A stretch of DNA of 64,000 bases from Elusimicrobiota bacterium (GCA_043820025.1 JBDRED010000021.1:14902-78901); one strand, 5' to 3'. Shown: positions 20,747-55,425, numbered from the stretch's first letter. Notes: a model not told the origin generated them from the sequence alone. A program made the numbers and translations.

Positions 20747-20807
20747 TTTCAGCGCCTAAAAAAATACCATGACTAACTGTCATGGTAATATTAAATTGAT
20801 TATAAAA

Positions 20808-20880
20808 TGCCAGGACCCAGAATTGAACTGGGGACGCAGGGTTTTTCAGACCCTCGCTCTACCAACTGAGCTATCCCGGC
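20808..20880 (-). tRNA. tRNA-Phe (anticodon GAA), 73 nt, CCA not encoded
   Basis: Revcomp folds as GCCGGGA/TCCTGGC acceptor, GCTC/GAGC D-stem, AGGGT-CTGAAAA-ACCCT anticodon arm (GAA), CCCAG-TTCAATT-CTGGG T-arm, discriminator A. Confidence 0.9.
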
Positions 20881-20892
20881 ATTTATATTTTT

Positions 20893-32287: not shown

Positions 32288-33346
32288 TTAATTACTTGGT
32301 TGTTCGCCGATTTCTGCGTTTGGTTCTTCGCTCTTTGCTTCTTCCATCTTTGCTTGTTTTTTATCTTTGGATTTTTCTTTATCCTTAACTTTTTTTTCCT
32401 TTTCCGGCTTAGCTTCTTTTTGTTTTTCATTCTGTTTTTTATCTTCTTTACTCTTATCTCCCTTTTTCTCAAACTTTGACACAGCCTTTTCCATCATCTT
32501 AATAACCTTAGGATTACCTTTTATCTTTGCGATTGCCAGAGCGTCATTTCCCTTATTATTCTTAGCTGTAACATACGCCTTTTGCTTTATTATGCTATCA
32601 ATAAGTTTAACATTATCAGTCCTAATAGCGTACATAAGAGCTGTATTTCCTGTTTTGTCGGCAATATTCACGTCGAGATTCTTCTGTTTTTGGAGTATTG
32701 GCGTTATAGCATCGCATCCCTTTGATATTGAATACATAAAAGGAGTGACGCCATTTACATCTTGAAGATTGACATCAATCTTTGCCTTTAGGAGAACATT
32801 AACAAGTTGCGCATTCTTTTTTTCAACTGCAAATCTTAAAGCTGAAAATCCATTATCATCCACTGCGTTTATATTAGCGCCATGCTCCAAAAGAAATGAT
32901 ACAACTTCTACACGTTCTTCCCTGCTCGCAATTAAAAGAGCGGTCAAATCATTTTTTGTTTTATTATTAATGTCAAGGCCTCTGGTAAGAAGAAGTCCAA
33001 GTCCCGCTTGATCGCCTCTTCTCGCGAACACAAAAAACGCGCCGTAGAGAGCGTTTGTTTCCTCTATATCTCTCTTTGCCTCGTCAATATTTTCCAATCC
33101 GCTCAGCATTACGTTTTTTTCTACCGGTGTTACAGGCATAGCTGTCTGCGCAGGCTCAGCCTCAATATTTGAATTTGCAGCATCCGCTGAAGCCAGCATC
33201 ATTGGCACAGCTGTATATGTAGACATCGCAATAAGAATATTTGACTGTTCTTCATTTGGGGCCTGAACAGCGGAATCCTCTGCGTAAAGATTAGTTAATC
33301 CTAAAAAAAGACCTGCGGCTAAAAACATTACAAACATTTTTTTCAT
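32288..33346 (-). CDS. Secreted ankyrin-repeat protein with lysine/glutamate-rich C-terminal tail
   Basis: Signal peptide MKKMFVMFLAAGLFLGLTNLYA; at least 4 ANK repeats (NDLTALLIASREERVEVVSFLLEHGANINAVDDNGFSALRFAVEKKNAQLVNVLLKAKIDVN...); tail KEDKKQNEKQKEAKPEKEKKVKDKEKSKDKKQAK. Confidence 0.75.
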   Translation of the reverse strand: MKKMFVMFLAAGLFLGLTNLYAEDSAVQAPNEEQSNILIAMSTYTAVPMMLASADAANSNIEAEPAQTAMPVTPVEKNVMLSGLENIDEAKRDIEETNALYGAFFVFARRGDQAGLGLLLTRGLDINNKTKNDLTALLIASREERVEVVSFLLEHGANINAVDDNGFSALRFAVEKKNAQLVNVLLKAKIDVNLQDVNGVTPFMYSISKGCDAITPILQKQKNLDVNIADKTGNTALMYAIRTDNVKLIDSIIKQKAYVTAKNNKGNDALAIAKIKGNPKVIKMMEKAVSKFEKKGDKSKEDKKQNEKQKEAKPEKEKKVKDKEKSKDKKQAKMEEAKSEEPNAEIGEQPSN

Positions 33347-33442
33347 AAAATGCCCTCCTTTAATTGTAAAAATTGTTTACGCGGCGAGCGCGTAAATTAT
33401 TATAATGTTGTATTATACAAATTTATGGAAATATATCAAATT

Positions 33443-42652: not shown

Positions 42653-44065
42653 TTATGAAATGTATTTTAGGATTGATTCTGCCGCTGTTTTACCCATACC
42701 CATTGCTTCTATTACAGTTCCTTCTCCTCCAACAATATCACCGCCTGCATATACGCCGGAAATAGAAGTCTCCATAGTTTCCCTATTAACAATAAGGTCT
42801 CCCTTTGCGTCAATCTTTAAATCCTGCGTTTCTCTGGTTAAAATTTTATTTGCTTTTAGGCCAATAGCAATGATTGCAACATCGCAGTCCAGATCAAATT
42901 CACTGTTCTTAATAGGCACAGGCCTTGGCCTGCCTGATTTATCTAAATCTCCAAGCGCGCATTTTAATGAACGCATCTTTTTTACATAATTATTTTCATC
43001 GCCGATAAAAGATATGGGCTGTACTAACACCTTAAAAATAATTCCTTCTTCCTTTGCATGGCTAAGCTCAAGCCTTCTGGCAGGCATTTCTTCTTCTGTG
43101 CGCCGGTAAACTATCGTAACATTTGGTTTTAAACCATTTAATTTTTGAAGCCTTAAAGCAACTCTCGCTGAGTCCATGGCAGTATTGCCGCCGCCGATAA
43201 CCAGCATGCTTTTTCCAATGTTGATTGGCGTATGGTATTCGGGAAATTTATACGCTGACATTAGATTCACCCTTGTTAAGAATTCATTAGCAGAATAAAC
43301 ATTACATAGATTTTCACCCGGTATTTTCATAAACGCCGGAGTGCCTGCGCCAAGCCCTAAAAACACAGCGCTAAATCCTTTTTTAAAAAGTTCTCTTAAT
43401 CCGCCGGTTCTTCCAATAATATAGTTTTGCACTATCTCAACGCCTAATTTTTTTAAATAATTTATTTCAAAATCCAAAATTTCCCCGGGAAGCCTAAAAG
43501 GAGGAATACCATAACGAAGAACACCGCCCGGAGTATGCAGACTTTCAAAAATAACAACCTTAACGCCTTTTCGCGCCAGTTCGCCTGCAACGCACAATCC
43601 TGCAGGGCCGCTGCCAACCACCGCAACCTTTTTGCCATTTGTCTTAGATAGTTTAATATCTATATCCGACTCGTGTTCTTTGCCATAATCGCCGGCAAAC
43701 CGCTCGAGAAAATGAATATTAATCGCGTTATCTGACGCGAATCTCTCGCCTTTCTTAGTCAAAACACACGCTTTTCTGCACTGAAACTCAGCCGGGCAAA
43801 CCCTGCCGCAGACAGATGGAAAATTGTTTTTTTCTTTTATAGTTTTATAGGCGTCTAGAAATTTGCGGTTTTTTATCTCTTCAATAAATTGTTTAATATT
43901 AATCCCTACAGGACAGCCTTCAATACATACGGGATTTTTACACTGAAGGCATCTTCCGGCCTCCATAACAGCCTGTTCTTCATTATAACCAAGAATCACC
44001 TCGTCAAAAGTATCCATCCTTTTTTCAAGAGGCATTTCATTGATTGAAACCTGTTTTGTTTTCAT
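42653..44065 (-). CDS. GltD-like NAD(P)H oxidoreductase beta subunit (NfnB/SudA-like)
   Basis: CLQCKNPVCIEGCPVGINI Fe-S motif; VAVVGSGPAGLCVAGELARKG FAD dinucleotide fold; 470 aa. Confidence 0.8.
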   Translation of the reverse strand: MKTKQVSINEMPLEKRMDTFDEVILGYNEEQAVMEAGRCLQCKNPVCIEGCPVGINIKQFIEEIKNRKFLDAYKTIKEKNNFPSVCGRVCPAEFQCRKACVLTKKGERFASDNAINIHFLERFAGDYGKEHESDIDIKLSKTNGKKVAVVGSGPAGLCVAGELARKGVKVVIFESLHTPGGVLRYGIPPFRLPGEILDFEINYLKKLGVEIVQNYIIGRTGGLRELFKKGFSAVFLGLGAGTPAFMKIPGENLCNVYSANEFLTRVNLMSAYKFPEYHTPINIGKSMLVIGGGNTAMDSARVALRLQKLNGLKPNVTIVYRRTEEEMPARRLELSHAKEEGIIFKVLVQPISFIGDENNYVKKMRSLKCALGDLDKSGRPRPVPIKNSEFDLDCDVAIIAIGLKANKILTRETQDLKIDAKGDLIVNRETMETSISGVYAGGDIVGGEGTVIEAMGMGKTAAESILKYIS

Positions 44066-44943
44066 TTTTTATAAAGTTTGCAAATATGTTCTTCTTTAGG
44101 CTTATAAACGCCGGTTCTGCTCATTAGTTCCTTCCAATCCACTAAATGAGCGTCAAACTCAGGCCCGTCGACACATGCAAACCTTACCTCCCCTCCAATA
44201 GTTACTCTGCAGCAGCCGCACATTCCTGTGCCATCCAAGATTAATGAATTTAAACAAGCAACGGTTTTTATTCCTTTTTCCTTTGTTATTTCCGCAGCCT
44301 TTTGCATCATTAAAATCGGGCCGACTGTATACACTAAGTCATATCTATTACTATTTATTTTTTCTTTCATAATATTGGTAGTAAATCCTTTTTCTCCATA
44401 GGATCCATCGTCAGTAACAATATAAATTTCATCAGATACATTCCGTAATTCATCTTCTAATATAATTAATGACTTTGTTTTAGAACCAATAACAATACAA
44501 ACATGATTTCCTTCTTCTTTCATCTTAGAGGCAATAGGCAGAATTTCAGCAATACCCACTCCGCCTGCCACAAGCATTACTCTGCCGTAGTTTTTAATCT
44601 TTGACGCATGTCCAAGAGGCCCGACAAGCGCGAACAGCCTGCCGCCTTCATCTAATCTGCCCAAAAGCTTTGTGGAATAGCCTATCTCTTGAAAAATAAT
44701 TGTGACTAATTCACTCTCAGCTTTAACAACTGTAAATGGCAGCCTCTCTCCTTTCTCATTTACCATAAGCACAATAAACTGGCCCGGCTTAACAGTATCC
44801 GCTATTTCAGGCGAAAATATCCGCATTTTGACAATACGAACATCTCCTAAAGACGCAATAATATTTTTATTAACTATTGTATTTTTTTCCACGATATTTC
44901 CTTTTATTATTAATATATTATTTACCTGTGAAATTATACACAC
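44062..44943 (-). CDS. PyrK-like FAD/NAD(P)-binding [2Fe-2S] subunit (NfnA/SudB-like)
   Basis: KPGQFIVLMV..., C-terminal CLNSLILDGTGMCGCCRVTIGGEVRFAC cluster motif; overlaps the beta-subunit gene by 4 nt. Likely real start GTG ~44892 after AAAGGA. Confidence 0.75.
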   Translation of the reverse strand: MCIISQVNNILIIKGNIVEKNTIVNKNIIASLGDVRIVKMRIFSPEIADTVKPGQFIVLMVNEKGERLPFTVVKAESELVTIIFQEIGYSTKLLGRLDEGGRLFALVGPLGHASKIKNYGRVMLVAGGVGIAEILPIASKMKEEGNHVCIVIGSKTKSLIILEDELRNVSDEIYIVTDDGSYGEKGFTTNIMKEKINSNRYDLVYTVGPILMMQKAAEITKEKGIKTVACLNSLILDGTGMCGCCRVTIGGEVRFACVDGPEFDAHLVDWKELMSRTGVYKPKEEHICKLYKK

Positions 44944-44960
44944 ACAATATGAAATGTCAA
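44926..44960 (-). promoter_or_regulatory. Consensus sigma70-type promoter (TTGACA-N16-TATAAT on minus strand) with overlapping Rex-like half-sites TGTGAAattaTACACA
   Basis: Minus strand reads attgacatttcatattgtgtgtgtataatttcacagg; + strand cTGTGAAATTATACACAc resembles TTGTGAA-N4-TTCACAA. Confidence 0.5.
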
Positions 44961-45050: not shown

Positions 45051-45078
45051 TTGACATCGAAATCATAATGGTTAAAAT
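45051..45078 (+). promoter_or_regulatory. Candidate promoter TTGACA-N16-TAAAAT for the hydrogenase operon
   Basis: ttgacatcgaaatcataatggttaaaat ~65 nt upstream of the NuoE-like gene. Confidence 0.45.
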
Positions 45079-45140: not shown

Positions 45141-45617
45141 ATGTCCAATTTTAATCCGAAACTAAGCAAACATGAAAAAAACGGCAAATCAATGTTTGTC
45201 TGTGATCAAACCAGGACACAGCTTTTGCCAAGACTTCAAGAAATTCAAATCAAACAAGGATACATTTCAGACAGGGATATGCAGGAACTTGCTGATGAGC
45301 TCGGACTTCATCCTGTGGAAGTTTACTCTATTGTAACCTTTTACTCATTTCTTTCAATAAAACCTAAAAGCCGCCACATTATTCGCGTCAGTAACTGCAT
45401 CTCCTGCAAGATGGCCGGAAGTGAAATCATTTTAAAGGAATTTGAAAATGAATTAGGCATTAAGACCGGCAAAACATCGCAAGATAATATCACACTTGAA
45501 TTGACAAGCTGTATTGGAATGTGCGACCAAGCGCCTGCTCTTATAGCCGATGATGTTGTGTATAGCAGTGTAACTCGAGAAACCGTAAAAAAAATAGTGC
45601 AAAATTTAAGAAAATAA
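45141..45617 (+). CDS. NuoE/HndA-like [2Fe-2S] thioredoxin-fold subunit of bifurcating-type hydrogenase
   Basis: CISCKMAGSE...LELTSCIGMCDQAPALIADDVVY Cys pattern of NuoE family. Confidence 0.8.
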   Translation: MSNFNPKLSKHEKNGKSMFVCDQTRTQLLPRLQEIQIKQGYISDRDMQELADELGLHPVEVYSIVTFYSFLSIKPKSRHIIRVSNCISCKMAGSEIILKEFENELGIKTGKTSQDNITLELTSCIGMCDQAPALIADDVVYSSVTRETVKKIVQNLRK

Positions 45618-45627
45618 GGAGAACTAA

Positions 45628-46833
45628 ATGGCAAAAAGAAATGGCCCTGTAATATTTAGTGAGATCAAATCAAATTCAGCACTAGAAAAAGCAATCCTGC
45701 TTGGCAGTGAAAAAATAATAAGCCTAATAAAAGATTCTAATCTCCGCGGCAGAGGCGGGGCCGGCTTCCCCACAGGCCTTAAATGGCAGTTTGTGGCAGA
45801 TTCGCAATCCTTAGAAAAATATGTTGTATGCAACGCGGACGAAGGCGAACCCGGAACATTTAAAGACAGAGTGTTATTATCCGAATACCCCGGGCTAATA
45901 TTCGACGGCATGGTAATCGCAGGACTTGCTATAGGAGCAAATAAAGGATTTCTTTATTTGCGCGGCGAATATAGGTATATGCTTGCTGATTTGGAAAAAG
46001 AACTTACAGAAATGAGAAAAGGCGGAGCGCTTGGCAAAGACATTTTAGGCGCTAAAGAATTTAATTTTGATATAGAGATTAAACTTGGATCAGGCGCGTA
46101 TGTATGCGGAGAAGAAACAGCGCTCATTGAATCAATGGAGGGCTATAGAGGCGAACCTAGAAACAGGCCTCCATTTCCTGTAGATACCGGATACACTTGC
46201 TTTCCAACTATTGTAAATAATGTTGAGACATTCGCAACTATTCCCCATATTATTGCAAAAGGCGCAGATTGGTTTAAATCCTTTGGCACAGAAAAATCAT
46301 CCGGTTCAAAACTTTTAAGCATTTCAGGAGACTGCTCTAATCCCGGAGTATACGAGGTTGTATTTGGCACAACTGTACAAGAAGCGCTCGACATTGCCGG
46401 AGCAAACGATACAAAGGCTGTTCAAATCGGAGGAGCATCCGGTATATGTATTGGAAAAAAGGATTTTAATAGAAAAATAGCCTATGAAGATATTCCGACA
46501 GGCGGTTCATTTATAATATTTAATAAATCAAGAAACTTAATAGACGCTATTGAAAACTTTTTAGATTTTTTCAAGGAAGAATCCTGCGGCCAATGCACGC
46601 CATGCCGCGAAGGCATACCTGTTCTAATTGAGGCAGTATCATTATTAAGAAAAGGCGATTGTTCAGCGGATTATTTAAATGACATTCAGTCATTATGCGA
46701 AACAATGCAGTTAGCGTCAAAATGCGGACTGGGACAATCAGCGCCTAACGCATTTTTATCTGTTATAAAGAATTTTCAAGACGAATATGTTCTATCAAAA
46801 AAATCTAAAAAGGAGATATCATTCAATGGATAA
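45628..46833 (+). CDS. NuoF-like NADH/FMN-binding subunit of [FeFe] hydrogenase complex
   Basis: GRGGAGFPTGLKW, SGAYVCGEETALIESMEG, ESCGQCTPCREG. Confidence 0.85.
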   Translation: MAKRNGPVIFSEIKSNSALEKAILLGSEKIISLIKDSNLRGRGGAGFPTGLKWQFVADSQSLEKYVVCNADEGEPGTFKDRVLLSEYPGLIFDGMVIAGLAIGANKGFLYLRGEYRYMLADLEKELTEMRKGGALGKDILGAKEFNFDIEIKLGSGAYVCGEETALIESMEGYRGEPRNRPPFPVDTGYTCFPTIVNNVETFATIPHIIAKGADWFKSFGTEKSSGSKLLSISGDCSNPGVYEVVFGTTVQEALDIAGANDTKAVQIGGASGICIGKKDFNRKIAYEDIPTGGSFIIFNKSRNLIDAIENFLDFFKEESCGQCTPCREGIPVLIEAVSLLRKGDCSADYLNDIQSLCETMQLASKCGLGQSAPNAFLSVIKNFQDEYVLSKKSKKEISFNG

Positions 46834-48724
46834 TAAACCATTTGGAGGGCCTGCTTCACGCGCCCCAAGAAGCCAAAGTTTAAGAGATGTCACAAATGAT
46901 TCAAGAATTAATCTTGAAGGCAAGGAAATGATTGATATTACCATTGATCATCTGAAACATAAAATATTAAAGGGCTCAACAATACTACAGGCAGCAAAAG
47001 AGCTTAATATTAAAATCCCCACACTCTGCCAGCACGACGATCTTTGCCTTGCAGGCGTATGCCGCGTATGTGTTGTTGAAGTCAGCGGAGAACGCACTCT
47101 TCAATCCGCGTGTTCATATCCTATATTAAAATCAATTGAGGTTAACACTTACTCGCCAAAGGTTAGACGCGCGCGAAAAAATATTCTCCAGCTTCTATTA
47201 AGAAACCATTATGGCGAATGCTATTCCTGCAGAAGAAACAATAACTGCGAACTTCAAGAACTTGCGAAGGAATACGGCGTTACAAACTATAAATTCGGAC
47301 ATATAAATAAACCAAGATATGCTCAAGACTCGTCAAGTTATTCAGTTGAAAGAGATATGAATAAATGCGTGCTTTGCAGAAGATGCGTCAGAACTTGTAT
47401 TGACCTTCAAGAAGTAGGCGTATTAGAAGCAGGCTTTAGAGGATCTGATACAAAAATTGTAACATATTTAGATAAACCTCTTGCTGACGTGATTTGTATA
47501 AATTGCGGCCAATGCATAAACCGCTGTCCCACAGGCGCGCTAAAAGCAAAAAGCGCTGTTGACTTAGCGTGGGAAGCAATCGATAATCCTGAAAAACACG
47601 TTATCATTCAGACTGCGCCCAGCCCAAGAGCCGCAATAGGCGAAGAGTTCGGGCTTCCTGCCGGAACAAGCGTTACGAAAAAACTAAATACAGCTCTAAA
47701 AAGAGTAGGATTTAATAAAGTTTTTGACACAAATTTTACAGCTGATTTAACAATTATGGAAGAAGGCACAGAACTCTTAATAAAACTAAAAAAGGCTCTT
47801 GTTGATAAAGATAAAAGCGTAATGCTTCCTCAATTTACTTCCTGCTCTCCGGGATGGGTTAAATATATTGAGCACTTTTATCCTGAAAAACTTGGACATG
47901 TTTCAACAGCAAAAAGCCCGCAGCAGATGTTCGGCGCAATAGTAAAAACATGGTACGCTCAAAAAAATAATATAGACCCAAAAAACATTGTAAGCGTTTC
48001 TCTTATGCCTTGTTCTGCCAAAAAATTTGAATGCGAACGTCCGGAGATGAACAGCTCGGGCTTCAAAGATGTTGATATAGCTCTTACTACGCGCGAGCTT
48101 GCTGATATGATAAAGGAATGCGGCATTGACCTCCCGAATCTACCGGAATCCGCATTTGATGACCCTCTGGGTATCGGATCAGGAGCAGCATTAATTTTTG
48201 GAGCAACAGGCGGAGTTATGGAAGCTGCAATTAGAACTGTTTATGAAATAGTTACAGGCGAAGAGGTTCCTTTTAAAAATCTTGATATCATGCCTGTGCG
48301 CGGAATGGAAGGAATACGAGAAGCATCCCTCCCAATTCCAAAGGCTGTAGCAGAATGGAAGTTTTTAGAAGGAGCGACTCTTAAGGTCATGGTAGGCCAT
48401 GGCACGGCTAATGCTAAGGAAATAATGGACATGCTTGTAAGAGGCGAACTTAATGATTATCATTTTGTAGAGATAATGGCCTGCCCCGGCGGATGCTTGG
48501 GCGGCGGCGGACAGCCTATACCAACAAGCCCGGAAATAAGACAAGCGCGCGCAAACGCGATATATGCGGAAGACGAAGGCCTGCCGCTTAGAAAGTCTCA
48601 CGAAAATCCTATAGTAAAGGAAATATATAAAGAATTTTTAACAGACGGGCCATGCGGCCATAAGAGCCATAAATTATTGCATACTTCGTATTTAAAACGC
48701 GGCAAATGGATTGGAAAAAAATAG
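46787..48724 (+). CDS. hydA: [FeFe] hydrogenase catalytic subunit (M3-type, CpI-like cluster complement)
   Basis: N-terminal 2Fe-2S and 4Fe-4S motifs (CRVCVVEV, HYGECYSCRRNNNC, CVLCRRCVRTC, CINCGQCINRCP); H-cluster motifs FTSCSPGW (L1 variant), MPCSAKKFE (L2), EIMACPGGCLGGGGQP (L3). Likely start MDNKPF at ~46826 overlapping upstream stop. Confidence 0.9.
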   Translation: MFYQKNLKRRYHSMDNKPFGGPASRAPRSQSLRDVTNDSRINLEGKEMIDITIDHLKHKILKGSTILQAAKELNIKIPTLCQHDDLCLAGVCRVCVVEVSGERTLQSACSYPILKSIEVNTYSPKVRRARKNILQLLLRNHYGECYSCRRNNNCELQELAKEYGVTNYKFGHINKPRYAQDSSSYSVERDMNKCVLCRRCVRTCIDLQEVGVLEAGFRGSDTKIVTYLDKPLADVICINCGQCINRCPTGALKAKSAVDLAWEAIDNPEKHVIIQTAPSPRAAIGEEFGLPAGTSVTKKLNTALKRVGFNKVFDTNFTADLTIMEEGTELLIKLKKALVDKDKSVMLPQFTSCSPGWVKYIEHFYPEKLGHVSTAKSPQQMFGAIVKTWYAQKNNIDPKNIVSVSLMPCSAKKFECERPEMNSSGFKDVDIALTTRELADMIKECGIDLPNLPESAFDDPLGIGSGAALIFGATGGVMEAAIRTVYEIVTGEEVPFKNLDIMPVRGMEGIREASLPIPKAVAEWKFLEGATLKVMVGHGTANAKEIMDMLVRGELNDYHFVEIMACPGGCLGGGGQPIPTSPEIRQARANAIYAEDEGLPLRKSHENPIVKEIYKEFLTDGPCGHKSHKLLHTSYLKRGKWIGKK

Positions 48725-48817
48725 CAGATTGAGCAAGAAAACGCATTCATAATTATAAAAAGATTTAATAGTATTAGATTTTATTAATCGTAATATAGGT
48801 TAGAAGTCATAAAAGCT

Positions 48818-49093
48818 TTGAAATTCCGGGAGGGTTTAATGAAAAAAGATATTCTTTTAATTTTAGTTAACAAAAGAAAGGAAACAGCTGTAAATGTTCA
48901 AAAGATTTTGACAGAATGGGGATGCTTAATTAAAACCAGGCTTGGCATACACGATGGAATACTCGACGATTGCTCAAACACAGGCCTGATTATGCTTGAA
49001 TTAGTCGGTGACCGGGCAAAGATCAATGAACTAACGCATAAGCTTGGACTGCTTGACGGCGTTAACGCAAAACTGGTAGAGCTTGCTCTATAA
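48818..49093 (+). CDS. TM1266-family putative iron-only hydrogenase system regulator (ACT-like)
   Basis: ~85 aa; ILTEWGCLIKTRLGIHDG...GLIMLELVGDRAKINELTHKLGLLDGVNAKLVEL fits the TM1266-family pattern; ATG ~48839 after GGGAGGG. Confidence 0.6.
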   Translation: MKFREGLMKKDILLILVNKRKETAVNVQKILTEWGCLIKTRLGIHDGILDDCSNTGLIMLELVGDRAKINELTHKLGLLDGVNAKLVELAL

Positions 49094-49209
49094 AGATAAA
49101 TGGGGTATATTGGCCGCTCGAATTTGCAACGGAATTTTAAAACAATAACTTCTATTAATGTGTCTGAGAATTATTGTTGTTAATCAGCTATATTGATCAT
49201 CAAATAACA

Positions 49210-50262
49210 CTAATTTTTTAAAGTATCTCCTCTTCCTTGCGCAATATATCGTCCAATTTCAACGCTCATCATACGCATACAACCGCTACACTGACCAGCC
49301 TCTTCGTTCACACAACGTTTATTTGGATATATTTCATAATATTCTCTGTATGGACCGGGAGTAAAGTTTGGCATCATTACATTTGCCCCTGCTTTTAATC
49401 CGTCAATCCTATAATCTTGTCCCATACTTCCTAGCGCTGTTGTAGCCGGAATATGCGCGTTCTTTGTCATTATTCTGGCTATTGCCATTACCTTCAAAGT
49501 TTCTTTAACATCTGCAATTTTAGAATCTTTTAGGCTTGTGAGCGGATGCGGAATAAAAGGGCTGATACTAACCATATCAAAATTTTCATTTCTAAAATAA
49601 ATCAAGTCATTGGCGATTGACTCATTTGTCTGGTTTGGAAGCCCGACAATATTTCCTGACCCGGTCTGATAACCTAATTCTTTCAGCCGCGCAAGGCAAT
49701 TTTTTCTATTTTCAAAACTCATCCCGGGATGCAGGCTATCGTACAAATTCTTATCAAGTGTTTCCATTTTCAGCAGGAACCTGTCAGCTCCGCTCTCTTT
49801 CCAAAGTTTGTAATCTTCAAAAGTTTTTTCGCCTACTGAAAGTGTAATAGCCAGATTTTTATAAAGAGATCTAATGGTTTTTATTACGTCAGCGAACCAT
49901 TGCGGGTCAAGTCCATCATACTCTCCTGACTGCAGGACAACTGTGCCTATATTATGTTTTACTATAAGTCCAACTGACTCTAGAATCTCTGCTTTTGTCA
50001 TACAATAGCGTCTTAGTTTTGTATTTAGACTTGTCAGCCCGCAGTACGCGCAGTTATTGCCGCAAAAATTTGAAAATTCAAGCAAACCTCTTAAATAAAT
50101 TCCGTCTCCGAGACATTCCTTTCTAATTTTACTCGCTGTATCGAATATTAATTTAATATTATCGTCGGAAGCAGCGGATAATAATTCCACACAGCCATCT
50201 TTTGTAATATTGGGCGATGTTAATATGTTATTAATATTATACATACTCATCCCGCTTGCCAT
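49210..50262 (-). CDS. hydE: [FeFe] hydrogenase maturase HydE (radical SAM, BioB-like)
   Basis: CGNNCAYCG radical-SAM CxxxCxxC; ~350 aa. Confidence 0.85.
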   Translation of the reverse strand: MASGMSMYNINNILTSPNITKDGCVELLSAASDDNIKLIFDTASKIRKECLGDGIYLRGLLEFSNFCGNNCAYCGLTSLNTKLRRYCMTKAEILESVGLIVKHNIGTVVLQSGEYDGLDPQWFADVIKTIRSLYKNLAITLSVGEKTFEDYKLWKESGADRFLLKMETLDKNLYDSLHPGMSFENRKNCLARLKELGYQTGSGNIVGLPNQTNESIANDLIYFRNENFDMVSISPFIPHPLTSLKDSKIADVKETLKVMAIARIMTKNAHIPATTALGSMGQDYRIDGLKAGANVMMPNFTPGPYREYYEIYPNKRCVNEEAGQCSGCMRMMSVEIGRYIAQGRGDTLKN

Positions 50263-51619
50263 TCTTCATTTTGCAAAATATCTCATTTAACATATTTTTA
50301 TCGTCGCCGGATAAATCTTTAAACCCGGATTCAATAAGTTTTCTACCTTTCTCTTTTACATCAGCCGAAGCAAAATCGTCGAGGTACTCGGTAAGAGTCA
50401 ATAAAGCGTTCATACTGCACTTGCCTTTGATATTACCGGGTTTCGCAAGGCCCATAAACGCCTCTCCTGTCCTGCCCGAACGGTAACAAGCTGTGCAAAA
50501 ACTTGGGACACAACCATGATCTATTAATGAAGATATTATTTCATCAAGGCTTCTCTCATCATGCACGCCAAACTGAGCGTTCTTACCCCCATTTTCATTT
50601 TTATAGCCTCCGGGAGATGTTTTAGACTCGGCGCTTATTTGAGAGATCCCATAATTAAAAAGTTCATCCCGTAATTTCGCAGTCTCCCTTGTAGAAAGTA
50701 TCAGCCCGGTATATGGCACCGCTAATCTTAAAATCGCGGCCAGTTTTTTAAATTCAATATCTTGTAATTTATATGGCGGATTTAATGTGTAAGGAGCGCC
50801 GTCAGCTGACTCGATTCTCGGAACAGAAATTGTATGAGGCCCTACATTAAACTTATTCTCCAAATGTTCAATATGCGCCATAAGCGCAAGTGTTTCAAAT
50901 TTCCAGTCATAAAGCCCGTATAATACGCCTATGCCAACATCGTCTATTCCGCATTCAAAAGCGTCATCAATTGCCTGCATTCTTATGTCAGGATCGCTTT
51001 TGGGGCCGTTTAAATGCACCCTTTTATAAGTTTCGTCATGATATGTTTCTTGAAACAGCTGATATGTCCCTATTCCCGCTGTTTTTAATATCTTAAACTC
51101 TTCTTTGCTTAGCGGCGCTACATTTACATTAACACGCCTAATACTATTATTCTCATATTTAGCTTCATAAATCGCTCGAATTGAATCTATATAAAAATCT
51201 ATCTTCTTTTTATTTTGCGGCGCAGACTCTCCGGCTACCATGAGTATTCTTTTATGTCCTCTTTTAAGCAGCCAGGCAATCTGTTCTTTTATTTCTTCCT
51301 CTGTTAAAGCCTTCCTGACAATTGCCTTATTATCAGCTCTAAAACCACAGTAAAGACAGTTATTACAGCATTGGTTGCTAATGTACATTGGCGCAAAAAG
51401 CACTACTCTTTTTCCATATATTTTTTCCTTAACATACGCGGCTGTTTCAAATAATTTATTAACTAAATCCTCATCGGTAATTTTTAAAAGCTGTCCCACT
51501 TCTTGCAGTGACAACCTGCCAAGAGATTTAGATTTTTCAAGAATATCCTTGATCTGAAATTTATCAACCTTAGCTCCTTCAAGGATAGAATATATTTTGT
51601 TGTTTTCAATATACTTCAT
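50237..51619 (-). CDS. hydG: [FeFe] hydrogenase maturase HydG (radical SAM, ThiH-like)
   Basis: CCNNCLYCGF radical-SAM motif; C-terminal CTACYRSGRTG...GKCSMNAL second-cluster motif; 460 aa. Confidence 0.85.
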   Translation of the reverse strand: MKYIENNKIYSILEGAKVDKFQIKDILEKSKSLGRLSLQEVGQLLKITDEDLVNKLFETAAYVKEKIYGKRVVLFAPMYISNQCCNNCLYCGFRADNKAIVRKALTEEEIKEQIAWLLKRGHKRILMVAGESAPQNKKKIDFYIDSIRAIYEAKYENNSIRRVNVNVAPLSKEEFKILKTAGIGTYQLFQETYHDETYKRVHLNGPKSDPDIRMQAIDDAFECGIDDVGIGVLYGLYDWKFETLALMAHIEHLENKFNVGPHTISVPRIESADGAPYTLNPPYKLQDIEFKKLAAILRLAVPYTGLILSTRETAKLRDELFNYGISQISAESKTSPGGYKNENGGKNAQFGVHDERSLDEIISSLIDHGCVPSFCTACYRSGRTGEAFMGLAKPGNIKGKCSMNALLTLTEYLDDFASADVKEKGRKLIESGFKDLSGDDKNMLNEIFCKMKNGKRDEYV

Positions 51620-51621
51620 AA

Positions 51622-52293
51622 TTATTTTATTCCTTCTTTGATTTGATTTTGCGCGTTAACAAAATAAATTACATTTTCGAGCTCTAACTCTAAATTAACA
51701 TTATTAACAACCGCTCCTATAGGAACATTCAGATTAATCGGAGCAAAATTAAGAATACCTTTAACCCCTGCTTTAATTATTCTATCAGCAATACTCTGAG
51801 CAACTTCATGAGGCACAGCAAGAATCGCCAGTCTTACATCTTCATTTTTTATTATAGCCTCTAATTCCTCCATTGGCTTAATAACCATATTTCCCATTCC
51901 GTTATTCTTGCCTGGATTAATATCAAAGGCAGCGGCAATTTCTATACCCTCATTTTCAAACCCGCTGTAATTCATAAGCGCTGTTCCAATATTTCCAACA
52001 CCTATAACAATCACCTTCTGCACTACATTCTTTCCAAGTATCTTATTTAAATTTTCAATAAGCTCCTCAATAATATATCCACCCTTCTTATTGCCGGTAA
52101 TACCAAATACTGAAAAATCCTTTCTTACCTGTACAGGAGAAATCCCTAAAGAATCCCCTAAGTTATCAGAATATACCTTCACAAATCCAATATCTTTTAA
52201 TCTATTTAAAGCATTCTTGTAACCGGATAATCTCATTATTACATTTTTATTATTTGTCATTTTATTGTTCCTTTTTGGTACATATACTTGCAA
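51622..52293 (-). CDS. rex: Redox-sensing transcriptional repressor Rex
   Basis: N-terminal winged helix (RLSGYKNALNRLKDIGFVKVYSDNLGDSLGISPVQVRKDFSVFG) and Rossmann VIVIGVGNIGTAL; probable start MTNNKN at ~52260 after AAGGAA. Confidence 0.8.
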   Translation of the reverse strand: MQVYVPKRNNKMTNNKNVIMRLSGYKNALNRLKDIGFVKVYSDNLGDSLGISPVQVRKDFSVFGITGNKKGGYIIEELIENLNKILGKNVVQKVIVIGVGNIGTALMNYSGFENEGIEIAAAFDINPGKNNGMGNMVIKPMEELEAIIKNEDVRLAILAVPHEVAQSIADRIIKAGVKGILNFAPINLNVPIGAVVNNVNLELELENVIYFVNAQNQIKEGIK

Positions 52294-52470
52294 TATACTA
52301 TCATATTATTTACTCTTGTCAATTTTTATTACGATAGTTTAGCACAATACATCCATAAGAGCCATTATTCTCAACACTAATTCTTAAAGGCAGACTGATA
52401 TTATTTTTTTCCAATAAATAAAAAAGGCCTATGCAATAAAGCGCAGGCCTTTTAAAATAGCTTTCATTTT

Positions 52471-53115
52471 TTATTTTTCACGCTCTTCTTCAAAATATTC
52501 TGTAAACTCACCGTGTTCTTTGTACCATTCTTTGTATGCGCCAATTGGCAGACCTTCGACTCTATCATACCTTGGATATTGTTTTTCAGTTTCATAGGAA
52601 ACCTTTCTGCTTTCATCTTGAAAAATGCTTTCTTCGATAGCTCTAACCATATCCTGAGGCGTAAAAAATATTCCGGTATCTAATCTGAGTTTTGTATACA
52701 ATGTTTCTAATGTTTTAAAATAATATAGCGCTTTAAGTATTGATTTTGGATTGAGCGCGTTTTCTTTATTTAAAACAAAGTCAACCTTTTCATAAAGCTT
52801 TGACATATCAAACGGCTTTTTCATATAACAAAAAGCGTGCATAACCTTTCTGACTATTTCCTCAGTTACGTCAACTTTGCCGGATATGATAATAACATTA
52901 AACATTTTTCCAAGCTCGGTTAATTGCAAACCGGATTTATCAGGTAAATCAACATCAAGTAATATTATATCAGGCTGTATCTGCTCAGCGCTTTTAACGC
53001 CATCCATAGCTGTGTGCGCCATATGCACCTCATAATCATTCTCCTCAAAAAAACCTTTTACAAGTTCGCATAATGTTACTTCATCGTCTATAATTAACAT
53101 CTTATTTTTTTTCAT
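52471..53115 (-). CDS. Response regulator (REC domain) with uncharacterised non-HTH C-terminal domain
   Basis: MLIIDDEVTLCELVKGFFEENDYEVHMAHTAMDG...DIILLDVDLPDKSG REC signature; C-terminal ~90 aa unrecognised. Confidence 0.75.
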   Translation of the reverse strand: MKKNKMLIIDDEVTLCELVKGFFEENDYEVHMAHTAMDGVKSAEQIQPDIILLDVDLPDKSGLQLTELGKMFNVIIISGKVDVTEEIVRKVMHAFCYMKKPFDMSKLYEKVDFVLNKENALNPKSILKALYYFKTLETLYTKLRLDTGIFFTPQDMVRAIEESIFQDESRKVSYETEKQYPRYDRVEGLPIGAYKEWYKEHGEFTEYFEEEREK

Positions 53116-53238: not shown

Positions 53239-55425
53239 TCATTTTTCCTGTTTATCTTTGTATATTGGGAGATACACAGTGAATGTTGTGCCCTCGCCTT
53301 CCTTGCTTGCGACCTCAATATCTCCTCTATTATCCGTCACCATCCTGTGCACAAGAGAAACTCCCATACCTGTGCCCTGAGAACCTTTTGTTGTAAAAAA
53401 TAAATCAAAAATCTTATTTTTAATATTATCAGGTATGCCATGTCCTGTATCCGATATCTTCATTTCCACAAACCCAAGCCTGCTCATTGAGTCTTGGGCA
53501 TTTATTGTGATCGTACCGCCGCGATCATTTGCCATTGCCTCAATAGCGTTTATGCAAAGATTCATTATTACCTGCTGTATATCTATAGCTTTGACCAAAA
53601 CCGGTGATAACCCGGGTTCAATGCTTTTTATTACGTTTATTTTAAAATCGTTAAACTTTTTAGAAGGTATCATATTGAGCCCCTCATTAATTATTTCTAA
53701 AAGATTTTCTCTTTGGAAATCCCCGGGCTTTGCAAATCCCATTATACCCTGAATAATATGCGCAATACGAAAAGCCATTTTTTTAATAATTTCGATATTC
53801 TTTATTTGCCAATCAGTAAATTCCTGCCTTAATTCAGAACTTAATCCTTCTTTTTCAATTCTATCTAAAAACCTGGGAAACTTTAAAGAACACAAATCAG
53901 CAGCTCCAACAACAGTCCCTAAAGGATTATTAATCTGATGCGCAAAACCGGCAGCCATCTCGCCTAAAGTAGATAGTTTTGCTGTTTGAATCAAATGCAT
54001 TTCATGTTCTTTTATTCTTTCAAAAAACTCAGCATTCTCAATAGCAAGAGAAACCTGATTAATCAAAGTTACAAGCACATTTAAGTCATATTTTGTATAA
54101 AGCTCTTTATTTATCTTTGCGCCCAGCGTAATAAAACCCTCTAAACGCTTATTCGAAAATCTAGGCAGTACTATGGAAGCTCCCAATGCTCTGATTTCTT
54201 TATACACTTCGTCATAATCTATTTGATATTTATTCAAAACAAATCGATCTAAATCTTCTATAACCAAAGGATTTCTTTCTCTATTTAATAGTTTAATCAA
54301 ATGATGTTCATCATTAAGCGCCTTTCCGGATTGATAACGCCTCTCTATGCCTCTGGATGCGACTAATTCATATTGCACGCGTTCTTCGTTATATTCAAAA
54401 AACCTAACATGGCTTATATTAATTTCTTTTGTGAGAATATCAACCACACTCTCTCTTATAGACTTTATATCTCTTACAAATATCATTTCTTTTGAAGCCT
54501 TAAGCAAAGATTCATAATATTGCCGATGTTTTCTTATCAGCCTTTCTTCAGCTTTATTTCTCAAATAGTGATAAATAATCTGACCTATATACGCTAAAAC
54601 TACGCCAAAAATAAAAAATCCAATCCACCAGCGCTCGCCAAGCAGCTGCGCAAAGTATTTCTCGCCTGAAATAGCAATAAATATCGAAACAGCGAGTATT
54701 AATCCATAAACAATAATAAAAATTGTTCCAACTGTTAATACGGTATTAATCTCCATTAAACGATGTTTAACAATAGAATAAAATAATACTATACTGCCAA
54801 GTCCGATCAAATATCCTGCCGGCGCAAAAACATTTATGAGCCCAAAAATTGTAGCGAAATATATACCATATCCTATATAAAACAATAAGTAGCCTAAAAA
54901 CACAAACTTGAATTGATCCCTCCTTATACCTATAGCGGATTTCATGCCATCATAAAGTAAAAAAATACAATAACCGCATCCCAGCGCAATAGATAAAAAG
55001 AAAATGTAATAAATTATGCCCGGATCAGATTGAACTAAAGTTGATCCTTTCACATTTACTAATCCTTTGATAAACAGCGAAGTTGGCAAAAAAACCAATA
55101 AAATTCCTGTAACAGCATACACTGCTTTTCTTGACCAATTATTCCATATTTCATTTCTCATTGTATATGCAAAATGGATTGATAGCAGAGGTAAAATAAT
55201 ACCAAAAATATAACAAAATCTATGAACATTTAATATAAAATTAGGGAAGTCTGACAGGAGATTGATAAAGAAAGCTCCCAAACACCACATACCAATAGAA
55301 AAATTTAAAAAAACAAAAGATTTATTTAATTTCGGCTCAATATTTCTATTAAACACAATAATAGCTAGAAGAAATGTAACTAAAACCGCAAATAAATTCC
55401 CTCCTATAATAAGAACCTTTAGCAT
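53239..55425 (-). CDS. Sensor histidine kinase (N-terminal 7TM, GAF-like, HisKA, HATPase_c)
   Basis: ~8 TM N-terminus; GAF-like segment; H-box LSTLGEMAAGFAHQINNPL; DTGHGIP...GTGMGVSL ATPase motifs. Confidence 0.85.
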   Translation of the reverse strand: MLKVLIIGGNLFAVLVTFLLAIIVFNRNIEPKLNKSFVFLNFSIGMWCLGAFFINLLSDFPNFILNVHRFCYIFGIILPLLSIHFAYTMRNEIWNNWSRKAVYAVTGILLVFLPTSLFIKGLVNVKGSTLVQSDPGIIYYIFFLSIALGCGYCIFLLYDGMKSAIGIRRDQFKFVFLGYLLFYIGYGIYFATIFGLINVFAPAGYLIGLGSIVLFYSIVKHRLMEINTVLTVGTIFIIVYGLILAVSIFIAISGEKYFAQLLGERWWIGFFIFGVVLAYIGQIIYHYLRNKAEERLIRKHRQYYESLLKASKEMIFVRDIKSIRESVVDILTKEINISHVRFFEYNEERVQYELVASRGIERRYQSGKALNDEHHLIKLLNRERNPLVIEDLDRFVLNKYQIDYDEVYKEIRALGASIVLPRFSNKRLEGFITLGAKINKELYTKYDLNVLVTLINQVSLAIENAEFFERIKEHEMHLIQTAKLSTLGEMAAGFAHQINNPLGTVVGAADLCSLKFPRFLDRIEKEGLSSELRQEFTDWQIKNIEIIKKMAFRIAHIIQGIMGFAKPGDFQRENLLEIINEGLNMIPSKKFNDFKINVIKSIEPGLSPVLVKAIDIQQVIMNLCINAIEAMANDRGGTITINAQDSMSRLGFVEMKISDTGHGIPDNIKNKIFDLFFTTKGSQGTGMGVSLVHRMVTDNRGDIEVASKEGEGTTFTVYLPIYKDKQEK

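Follow-up and report, generated by a model that had tools for sequence, protein, structure and literature searches.

Gene content of the hydrogenase locus

A 64,000-nucleotide stretch of DNA from Elusimicrobiota bacterium (GCA_043820025.1, JBDRED010000021.1:14902-78901; hereafter the window) carries, between positions 45,141 and 52,293, the genes of a trimeric [FeFe] hydrogenase, HydABC, together with genes for two of its maturases and for possible regulators. We assigned the genes by the scores of Pfam and NCBIfam profiles against their curated cutoffs (Table 1). They form two convergent operons. On the plus strand, hydC, hydB and hydA are followed by a small gene; on the minus strand, rex heads an operon in which hydG lies 2 nucleotides (nt) after rex and overlaps hydE by 26 nt. 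A preliminary description of the window had recognised a NuoE/NuoF/HydA trimer accompanied by hydE, hydG and rex, and each of these genes was identified by Pfam or NCBIfam in the place it had given. The order hydC-hydB-hydA was kept across phyla in related genomic loci. From the N-terminus, HydA shows domains for a [2Fe-2S] cluster, for a His-ligated [4Fe-4S] cluster and for two ferredoxin clusters, then the H-domain and a small-subunit-like C-terminus.

Table 1. Positions of genes, motifs and putative regulatory sites in the window
Feature	Position	Strand	Basis or remark
hydC, NuoE-like thioredoxin-fold [2Fe-2S] subunit, 158 amino acids (aa)	45141..45617	+	Pfam PF01257, 133 bits; orthologues directly 5' of hydB in related loci
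hydB, NuoF-like subunit for flavin mononucleotide (FMN) and NADH, 401 aa	45628..46833	+	Pfam Complex1_51K, NADH_4Fe-4S; non-bifurcating signature motifs
hydA, M3-type [FeFe] hydrogenase catalytic subunit, 632 aa	46826..48724	+	NF040763; Pfam Fer2_4, NADH-G_4Fe-4S_3, Fer4, Fe_hyd_lg_C, Fe_hyd_SSU
HydA N-terminal tail, 34 residues, core S-R-A-P-R-S-Q (residues 11-17)	46826..46927	+	conserved in homologues; outside NF040763
H-cluster motif L1, TSCSPGW	47837..47857	+	codons act tcc tgc tct ccg gga tgg
H-cluster motif L2, MPCSAKKFE (Cys396), canonical	48005..48031	+	translation; invariant columns M394 P395 C396
H-cluster motif L3, EIMACPGGCLGGGGQP (Cys553, Cys557), canonical	48470..48517	+	translation; invariant columns E549-P564
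Small ACT-like CPF_0552-family protein (TM1266-like fold), 84 aa	48840..49093	+	ATG 48840 after GGGAGGG; mechanical open reading frame (ORF) from TTG 48818
hydE, radical-SAM (S-adenosylmethionine) H-cluster maturase	49210..50262	-	TIGR03956, 337.4 bits (cutoff 254.6); CxxxCxxC present
hydG, radical-SAM H-cluster maturase	50237..51619	-	TIGR03955, 504.2 bits (cutoff 312.15); C-terminal CxxCx22C
rex, redox-sensing repressor	51622..52293	-	NF003996, 233.5 bits (cutoff 138); likely start ATG 52260 after AAAGGAA
Response regulator	52471-53115	-	adjoins rex; Pfam, NCBIfam
Sensor histidine kinase	53239-55425	-	beside rex and the response regulator; Pfam, NCBIfam
nfnB-like, NADPH-dependent glutamate-synthase-small-chain homologue	42653..44065	-	TIGR01316, 541.7 bits (cutoff 471.75); Pfam Fer4_20, Pyr_redox_2
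nfnA-like, sulfide/dihydroorotate-dehydrogenase-like FAD/NAD-binding subunit	44062..44943 (maximal ORF)	-	NF004862, 345.6 bits (cutoff 220)
Rex-operator-like palindrome TGTGAAATTATACACA	44927..44942	.	1 mismatch to 16-nt core TGTGAANNNNTTCACA; overlaps nfnA -10 box
nfnA promoter, TTGACA-16-TATAAT, sigma-70-type	44960..44933	-	consensus match, 12/12
hydCBA promoter-like site, TTGACA-16-TAAAAT	45051..45078	+	consensus match only, 11/12; 63 nt 5' of hydC ATG
rex promoter-like site	52322..52295	-	consensus match

HydA belongs to group A6 and HydB has non-bifurcating marks

HydA scored 814.4 bits with NF040763, the model for 'NADH-dependent [FeFe] hydrogenase, group A6' (cutoff 765), model positions 1-571 being aligned with residues 36-625. 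The preliminary description had put forward an alignment to curated [FeFe] hydrogenase groups as a check; the model places the protein in group A6. A 100% identical protein of 632 aa at NCBI (P0001) carries the same family name. The family is known and has a curated name, and the locus is a well-formed example of it.

The enzyme class was read from HydB. By Pfam, the 401-aa protein contains the FMN domain, a weak SLBB match and only one [4Fe-4S] domain; it aligned with residues 174-554 of the 626-aa HydB of Thermotoga maritima. Neither the [2Fe-2S] domain at the N-terminus, nor the two-cluster (2x[4Fe-4S]) ferredoxin domain at the C-terminus, nor the GGPSG motif of bifurcating HydABC (Bfu family) was found by Pfam or in the alignment. 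Losey et al. 2020 (PMC7311640) list marks by which non-bifurcating and bifurcating beta subunits can be told apart. At positions 232 and 234 of T. maritima HydB, non-bifurcating subunits have Thr or Ser and Lys, Ser or Ala, whereas bifurcating ones have Ala or Glu and Met; non-bifurcating subunits also have Tyr instead of Phe at position '367' near the FMN, and no GGPSG in the SLBB domain (T. maritima 427-431). HydB of the window has Thr and Lys (DEGEPGTFK) where T. maritima has Ala and Met (GDEGDPG-A-F-M), Tyr (GSGAYVCGEE) where T. maritima has Phe and four bifurcating HydB/NfnB chains read GAGA-F-VCGEE, and QIGGASG in place of QIGGPSG. The first and third marks, like the Tyr, are in the non-bifurcating state. 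We mapped the Phe/Tyr criterion to Phe312 of T. maritima HydB because this is the only Phe/Tyr split near the FMN site.

The same state was found in relatives. In 76 orthologous HydB ORFs from the 80 related loci, every readable mark was non-bifurcating, and all three marks were so in 67. Second hydrogenases with a long HydB (599-659 aa) are also encoded in related loci (n=4); three of these long subunits have Ala/Met, Phe and GGPSG, and the fourth, in L011, has Phe and GGPSG, its 232/234 mark being unread. As a separate observation, HydB is 554-575 aa long in L014, L015, L018, L019 and L061, and no separate hydC was found there, which suggests natural HydC-HydB fusions inside the same clade.

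Could the complex nevertheless bifurcate electrons, coupling NADH and reduced ferredoxin to H2 as the HydABC enzymes of T. maritima, Acetobacterium woodii and Thermoanaerobacter kivui do? A. woodii HydA1, from a bifurcating complex, is the solved protein that HydA matches best (614 bits), the best matches of HydB are bifurcating HydB chains, and the NfnAB-like pair next to hydCBA suggests a ferredoxin-linked redox economy. However, the missing domains of the short HydB and the state of its three marks all speak against bifurcation; deletion of the HydB C-terminus lowers the bifurcation activity of HydABC (PMC10021017), and Hyd1ABC of Syntrophomonas wolfei, with the same HydB architecture, is non-bifurcating (PMC5626996; PMC11406978). 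We consider a bifurcating enzyme unlikely at this locus. S. wolfei Hyd1ABC carries out NADH oxidation and NAD+ reduction without ferredoxin (PMC5626996), and a survey has recorded HydABC homologues without the B3-B5 clusters in several phyla (PMC11406978). Very probably, then, the product of the locus is a heterotrimeric [FeFe] hydrogenase of the S. wolfei Hyd1ABC type, NADH-dependent and non-bifurcating, and the locus also encodes part of its maturation and regulation machinery. Its function would most likely be NADH-driven, ferredoxin-independent H2 evolution or the reverse reaction. The preliminary description read the module correctly but missed the short HydB and, with it, the non-bifurcating NADH-dependent class.

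A conserved N-terminal tail of HydA

HydA begins with 34 residues that precede MIDITID and lie outside NF040763, whose match starts at residue 36. The start codon, ATG 46826, gives an overlap of 8 nt with the hydB stop (46831-46833) and stands 10 nt after AGGAG (46811-46815); the NCBI record of the identical protein uses the same start. An extension of about 34 aa, overlapping the upstream stop, had been proposed for the case that this ATG is used, and the ribosome-binding site, the NCBI start and the conservation of the tail all confirm it. A longer hydA starting at ATG 46787 was rejected: that codon is inside hydB and has no ribosome-binding site, and in both the NCBI record and the homologues the start corresponds to 46826. 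A Tat (twin-arginine translocation) or Sec signal was also considered and rejected, since the tail lacks both a twin arginine and a hydrophobic stretch.

The segment P-F-x-x-x-(T/S)-S-R-A-P-x-S-Q-R was at least 90% conserved in 71 aligned homologues, and the tail motif was conserved among 120 homologues and the 80 loci, which span many phyla. Its core, R-(A/T/S)-P-x-S-Q, was kept in loci of eight or more phyla (Omnitrophota, Ignavibacteriota, Planctomycetota, Firestonebacteria, Fibrobacterota, Latescibacterota, Hydrogenedentota and Armatimonadota). The core is followed by a linker of ~15-20 residues with variable sequence. In alignments to solved chains, the tail was absent from the hydrogenases of A. 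woodii and of T. kivui, as well as from CpI of Clostridium pasteurianum. In this data set it co-occurs with the short non-bifurcating HydB.

In a monomer model made with AlphaFold2, residues 1-32 of HydA had a predicted local distance difference test score of 31-35, and the H-domain was confident. The tail is thus predicted to be disordered, and because the model gives it no structure, it is silent on a docking site. That a motif is conserved within a disordered tail suggests that it binds some other surface, for instance that of HydB, HydC or a second protomer. Most likely, we infer, the tail is a clade-specific disordered peptide that docks onto one of these. More tentatively, and with somewhat less than even confidence, we propose that it is an undescribed functional element that defines a large multi-phylum clade of short-HydB (non-bifurcating), NADH-dependent hydrogenases, either as a docking arm that replaces the missing HydB domains or as a regulatory peptide that gates the NADH module. 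It is the only feature of the locus beyond existing family models and structures.

Three distant relatives with 36-46% identity, P0126 (630 aa), P0242 (615 aa) and P0147 (629 aa), keep the R-x-P-x-S-Q tail. The L1 motif of P0126 and P0242 is without the proton-relay Cys (TSGCPAW and SSDCPGW), that of P0147 was not detected, and the NF040763 scores of P0126 and P0147 are under the cutoff. The three may represent a branch of the tail-bearing clade that is non-catalytic or sensory. On the reading of the tail as a functional element, relatives that lost the relay Cys would be a sister group with the tail retained.

The serine in the L1 motif is a clade character

The L1 motif of HydA was read as TSCSPGW, exactly as in the preliminary description, with TCT (47846-47848) as the codon for the second Ser. 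In alignments to solved chains, Cys340 corresponds to the proton-relay Cys299 of CpI, and Ser341 corresponds to CpI Cys300, a ligand of the [4Fe-4S]H subcluster, and to Ser301 of A. woodii HydA1 (7q4v_A); the substitution is at a ligand position, in agreement with the preliminary description, which had placed it at a residue normally ligating or abutting the subcluster. The H-domain otherwise agrees with the group A pattern (L1 TSCCPxW, L2 MPCxxKxxE, L3 ExMACxxGCxxGGGQP and the relay Cys), Ser341 being the single difference in L1.

TSCSP[GA]W was found in all of the 120 best database homologues (73-100% identity) and in all 80 related loci. Among 150 representatives of 50%-identity clusters, 22 have the Ser form versus about 100 with TSCCP, and the Ser forms are concentrated among the best-scoring ones. 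NF040763 scores of Ser-type representatives were 810-881; those of TSCCP representatives were 642-775. A cluster look-up named a single organism, Natronincola peptidivorans, for carriers of TSCSPGW. The motif was reported from Melainabacteria hydrogenases in 2013 (PMC3787301). For A. woodii HydA1, a cryo-electron microscopy study reports Ser301 as a ligand of the H-cluster cubane that replaces one Cys ligand of cluster A1, and HydABC with this Ser as having normal Fourier-transform infrared (FTIR) signatures and being catalytically active (PMC10021017).

The preliminary description had taken the Cys-to-Ser change as a possible sign of a sensory, ancestral or catalytically biased enzyme. In favour of a sensory, biased or degenerate hydrogenase, Ser341 does occupy a true cluster-ligand position, and some L1 variants of other groups, such as TSCCCP in group B, are linked to altered behaviour. 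Yet the relay Cys, L2 and L3 are intact, hydA sits in an operon with the NADH module and not in a regulatory one, and no PAS or other sensory or signalling domain of the kind that, with loss of the relay Cys, marks the sensory hydrogenases (HydS, groups C/D) was found in HydA by Pfam. With Ser universal in the clade and its A. woodii counterpart normal and active, this explanation is scarcely credible. Ser at this position is typical of a known subgroup, the very outcome that the description had set against its own view of an anomaly. Because the Ser is fixed across the clade, has a solved precedent and is accompanied by canonical L2 and L3, we regard the TCT codon as genuine and the Ser as no sign of a sensory or degenerate enzyme. 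As judged from these alignments, a Ser ligand is the norm for this HydA family and compatible with a normal, active H-cluster.

Maturation genes and the position of hydF

HydE and HydG are intact, both passing their cutoffs with the expected motifs present. No hydF was found in the window: no ORF joins a GTPase P-loop with CxH...CxxC, the mid-size ORFs gave no NCBIfam HydF match, and tblastn with five HydF proteins of related loci gave a best E value of 0.26. An aspartate-ammonia-lyase-like gene, the companion of hydF in relatives, was likewise not found in the window. The absence of hydF from the neighbourhood, already pointed out in the preliminary description, thus extends to all 64 kb.

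Whether this absence is exceptional can be judged from the relatives. Of the 80 related loci, 23 have hydG or hydE near hydCBA; hydF is also present in 19 of these and missing from four (L007, L023, L028, L070). One locus (L075) has hydF with neither hydG nor hydE nearby, and at 56 hydCBA has no maturase gene nearby. S. wolfei carries hydE and hydG (RS05180, RS05190, with a small ORF between them) at a distance from hydF (RS01625) (PMC5626996), and in Clostridium species the maturase genes are scattered (PMC9431212). Given these counts and precedents, a separate hydF is a minority yet recurrent and unremarkable arrangement, and it does not stand out as had been thought.

The failure to find hydF in the window, together with its presence in most related loci that have hydG or hydE nearby, might be taken to mean that the genome truly lacks HydF, so that the H-cluster would be assembled without it or the hydrogenase would not be matured. 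We hold this to be very improbable: the window is only 64 kb of a metagenome-assembled genome, hydF is unlinked in S. wolfei and the maturase genes are scattered in Clostridium species, loci with hydG-hydE and no hydF or with no maturase at all occur among the relatives, and HydE and HydG of the window are intact. HydE and HydG would be supplied by the rex-led operon, and HydF would have to come from another locus.

Maturation clusters of relatives are arranged differently. In Omnitrophota (L001 5689-10659) the order is TM1266-like, aspartate-ammonia-lyase-like, hydF, hydG, hydE, and in Planctomycetota (L044 13205-19411; L049 11982-18027) it is hydG, CPF_0552-like, lyase-like, hydF, hydE, rex. 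Relative to these, the cluster of the window has lost the lyase-like gene and hydF. HydA is ~80% identical to Omnitrophota proteins, and the best match of HydG, also from Omnitrophota, is only 63% identical; HydE and HydG share only 39-46% identity with the maturases adjoining hydCBA in Omnitrophota. The contig is labelled Elusimicrobiota at NCBI. Structural and maturase genes seem to be of different history, or the bin label may be loose.

The small gene downstream of hydA had been called a TM1266-type regulator. Its product does match the TM1266-like Pfam fold (PF21699, 35.2 bits, cutoff 27) and the gene is located with the hydrogenase genes, but it falls short of the TM1266 equivalog TIGR03959 (36.3 bits, cutoff 60.8) and fits the CPF_0552 family instead (NF052672, 100.6 bits, cutoff 85). 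Homologues of this gene adjoin hydG in L044, L049, L054 and L055.

Promoters and a possible Rex operator

The palindrome TGTGAAATTATACACA is the only site in the 64 kb with at most one mismatch to the 16-nt core TGTGAANNNNTTCACA; 0.16 such sites are expected by chance. It lies ~110 nt upstream of the hydC promoter-like site. A search with the 18-mer Rex consensus gave 9 matches against 5.9 expected, which is not significant, and only the 16-mer core with at most one mismatch was informative for Rex operators.

Rex-like boxes (at most one mismatch) were found 5' of hydC in six related loci, at ~57 nt in L006, ~190 nt in L056 and 560-740 nt in L028, L068, L073 and L078. L054 has such a box upstream of a rex paralogue. 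In related loci, hydC is often directly preceded by rex. Rex may plausibly exert redox control over the neighbourhood and would probably tie it to the NADH/NAD+ ratio, with the operator-like site at the divergent nfnAB promoter and not at the hydC promoter.

Neighbouring genes

The nfnAB-like pair adjoins the 5' side of hydCBA and is transcribed divergently; the true start of nfnA is probably GTG 44892, which follows AAAGGA. In eight Ignavibacteriota loci (L027, L029, L031, L032, L038, L045, L060, L074), one or two histidine-kinase genes stand directly 5' of hydC, and their products are 26-38% identical to the kinase of the window. With the kinase/response-regulator pair beside rex, this may mean that two-component input to this hydrogenase is conserved.

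Elsewhere in the window, a 362-aa ORF (32288-33376, minus strand) gave ankyrin-repeat-type matches to models of Legionella Dot/Icm effectors, all far under the curated cutoffs, and is probably just an ankyrin-repeat protein. A tRNA-Phe (GAA) gene (20807-20881, minus strand) is the only RNA gene in the window as judged by ARAGORN and Rfam gathering thresholds; these scans detected no RNA gene within the hydrogenase region.

Comparison with characterised enzymes

S. wolfei Hyd1ABC resembles the complex described here in having three subunits, with a HydB of 43.9 kDa without extra Fe-S domains and a HydC of ~17 kDa (PMC5626996), and in having hydE and hydG together with a small ORF and far from hydF. 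The HydB residues of the window (Thr/Lys, Tyr, GGASG) are those of non-bifurcating enzymes, a likeness drawn through the published criteria (PMC7311640). HydA of the window is ~60 residues longer than its S. wolfei counterpart (632 aa versus ~63 kDa), largely owing to the N-terminal tail.

HydA1 of A. woodii HydABC(D) (PDB 7Q4V, 7Q4W, 8A5E) is the closest solved HydA and shares the L1 motif TSCSPGW and the M3 domain order. Unlike the complex of the window, that of A. woodii has a HydB of 599 aa that includes ferredoxin-type domains, and it is bifurcating; A. woodii HydA1 is without the N-terminal tail, the alignment beginning at residue 46 of the query. HydABC of T. maritima (7P5H) and T. kivui (8A6T) has homologous NuoE, NuoF and HydA modules and a HydB built on the same core of FMN and N3 cluster, but differs in L1 (TSCCP, shown for T. 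kivui), in a HydB of 626-630 aa with extra clusters and GGPSG, and in being bifurcating. CpI (PDB 4XDC and others) matches at 427 bits and has the M3 architecture, L2, L3 and the proton-relay residues in common with HydA; it differs in being monomeric and ferredoxin-dependent and in having Cys300 where HydA has Ser341.

Proposed electron path and points to weigh

Judged by its homology to modules of solved HydABC and of complex I, the enzyme would oxidise NADH at the FMN of HydB, and electrons would pass to the single [4Fe-4S] cluster of HydB, with the [2Fe-2S] cluster of HydC alongside. From there they would move through the [2Fe-2S], the His-ligated [4Fe-4S] and the two ferredoxin-type [4Fe-4S] clusters of HydA to the H-cluster, where protons would be reduced to H2. 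Ferredoxin should not be required, as HydB lacks ferredoxin-type domains. Ser341, Cys396, Cys553 and Cys557 would hold the H-cluster cubane, with Cys340 retained as proton relay, and the Ser ligand would be the ancestral state within this HydA clade, not a lesion.

Several points weigh against assignment to the non-bifurcating class or leave parts of the picture incomplete. The criteria are sequence marks derived from two characterised enzymes, and the class of this protein, as of all members of the tail-bearing clade, is a prediction from sequence. Position '367' of PMC7311640 is not a Phe in the numbering of 7p5h_B, so that its placement at Phe312 is by inference. The closest solved HydA belongs to a bifurcating complex. 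hydF was not located in the 64 kb of the genome that were covered, and a search for operators of the TTGTGAAnnnnTTCACAA type found no Rex box at the hydC or rex promoters in the window.

Implications

Seen by itself, a Cys-to-Ser change at an H-cluster ligand looks alarming; in this clade it is fixed and functional throughout, and it is found in a solved structure too. The L1 Ser should be taken neither for a lesion or sequencing error nor for a sensory marker. This locus is a further example of a non-bifurcating NADH-dependent hydrogenase, from an Elusimicrobiota-labelled genome with Omnitrophota-like genes. Without ferredoxin, H2 evolution from NADH would be feasible only where the H2 partial pressure is low or the NADH/NAD+ ratio high. 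If the hydrogenase is non-bifurcating and NADH-dependent, as its HydB indicates, its owner would depend on low H2, that is, on syntrophic or H2-scavenging partners.

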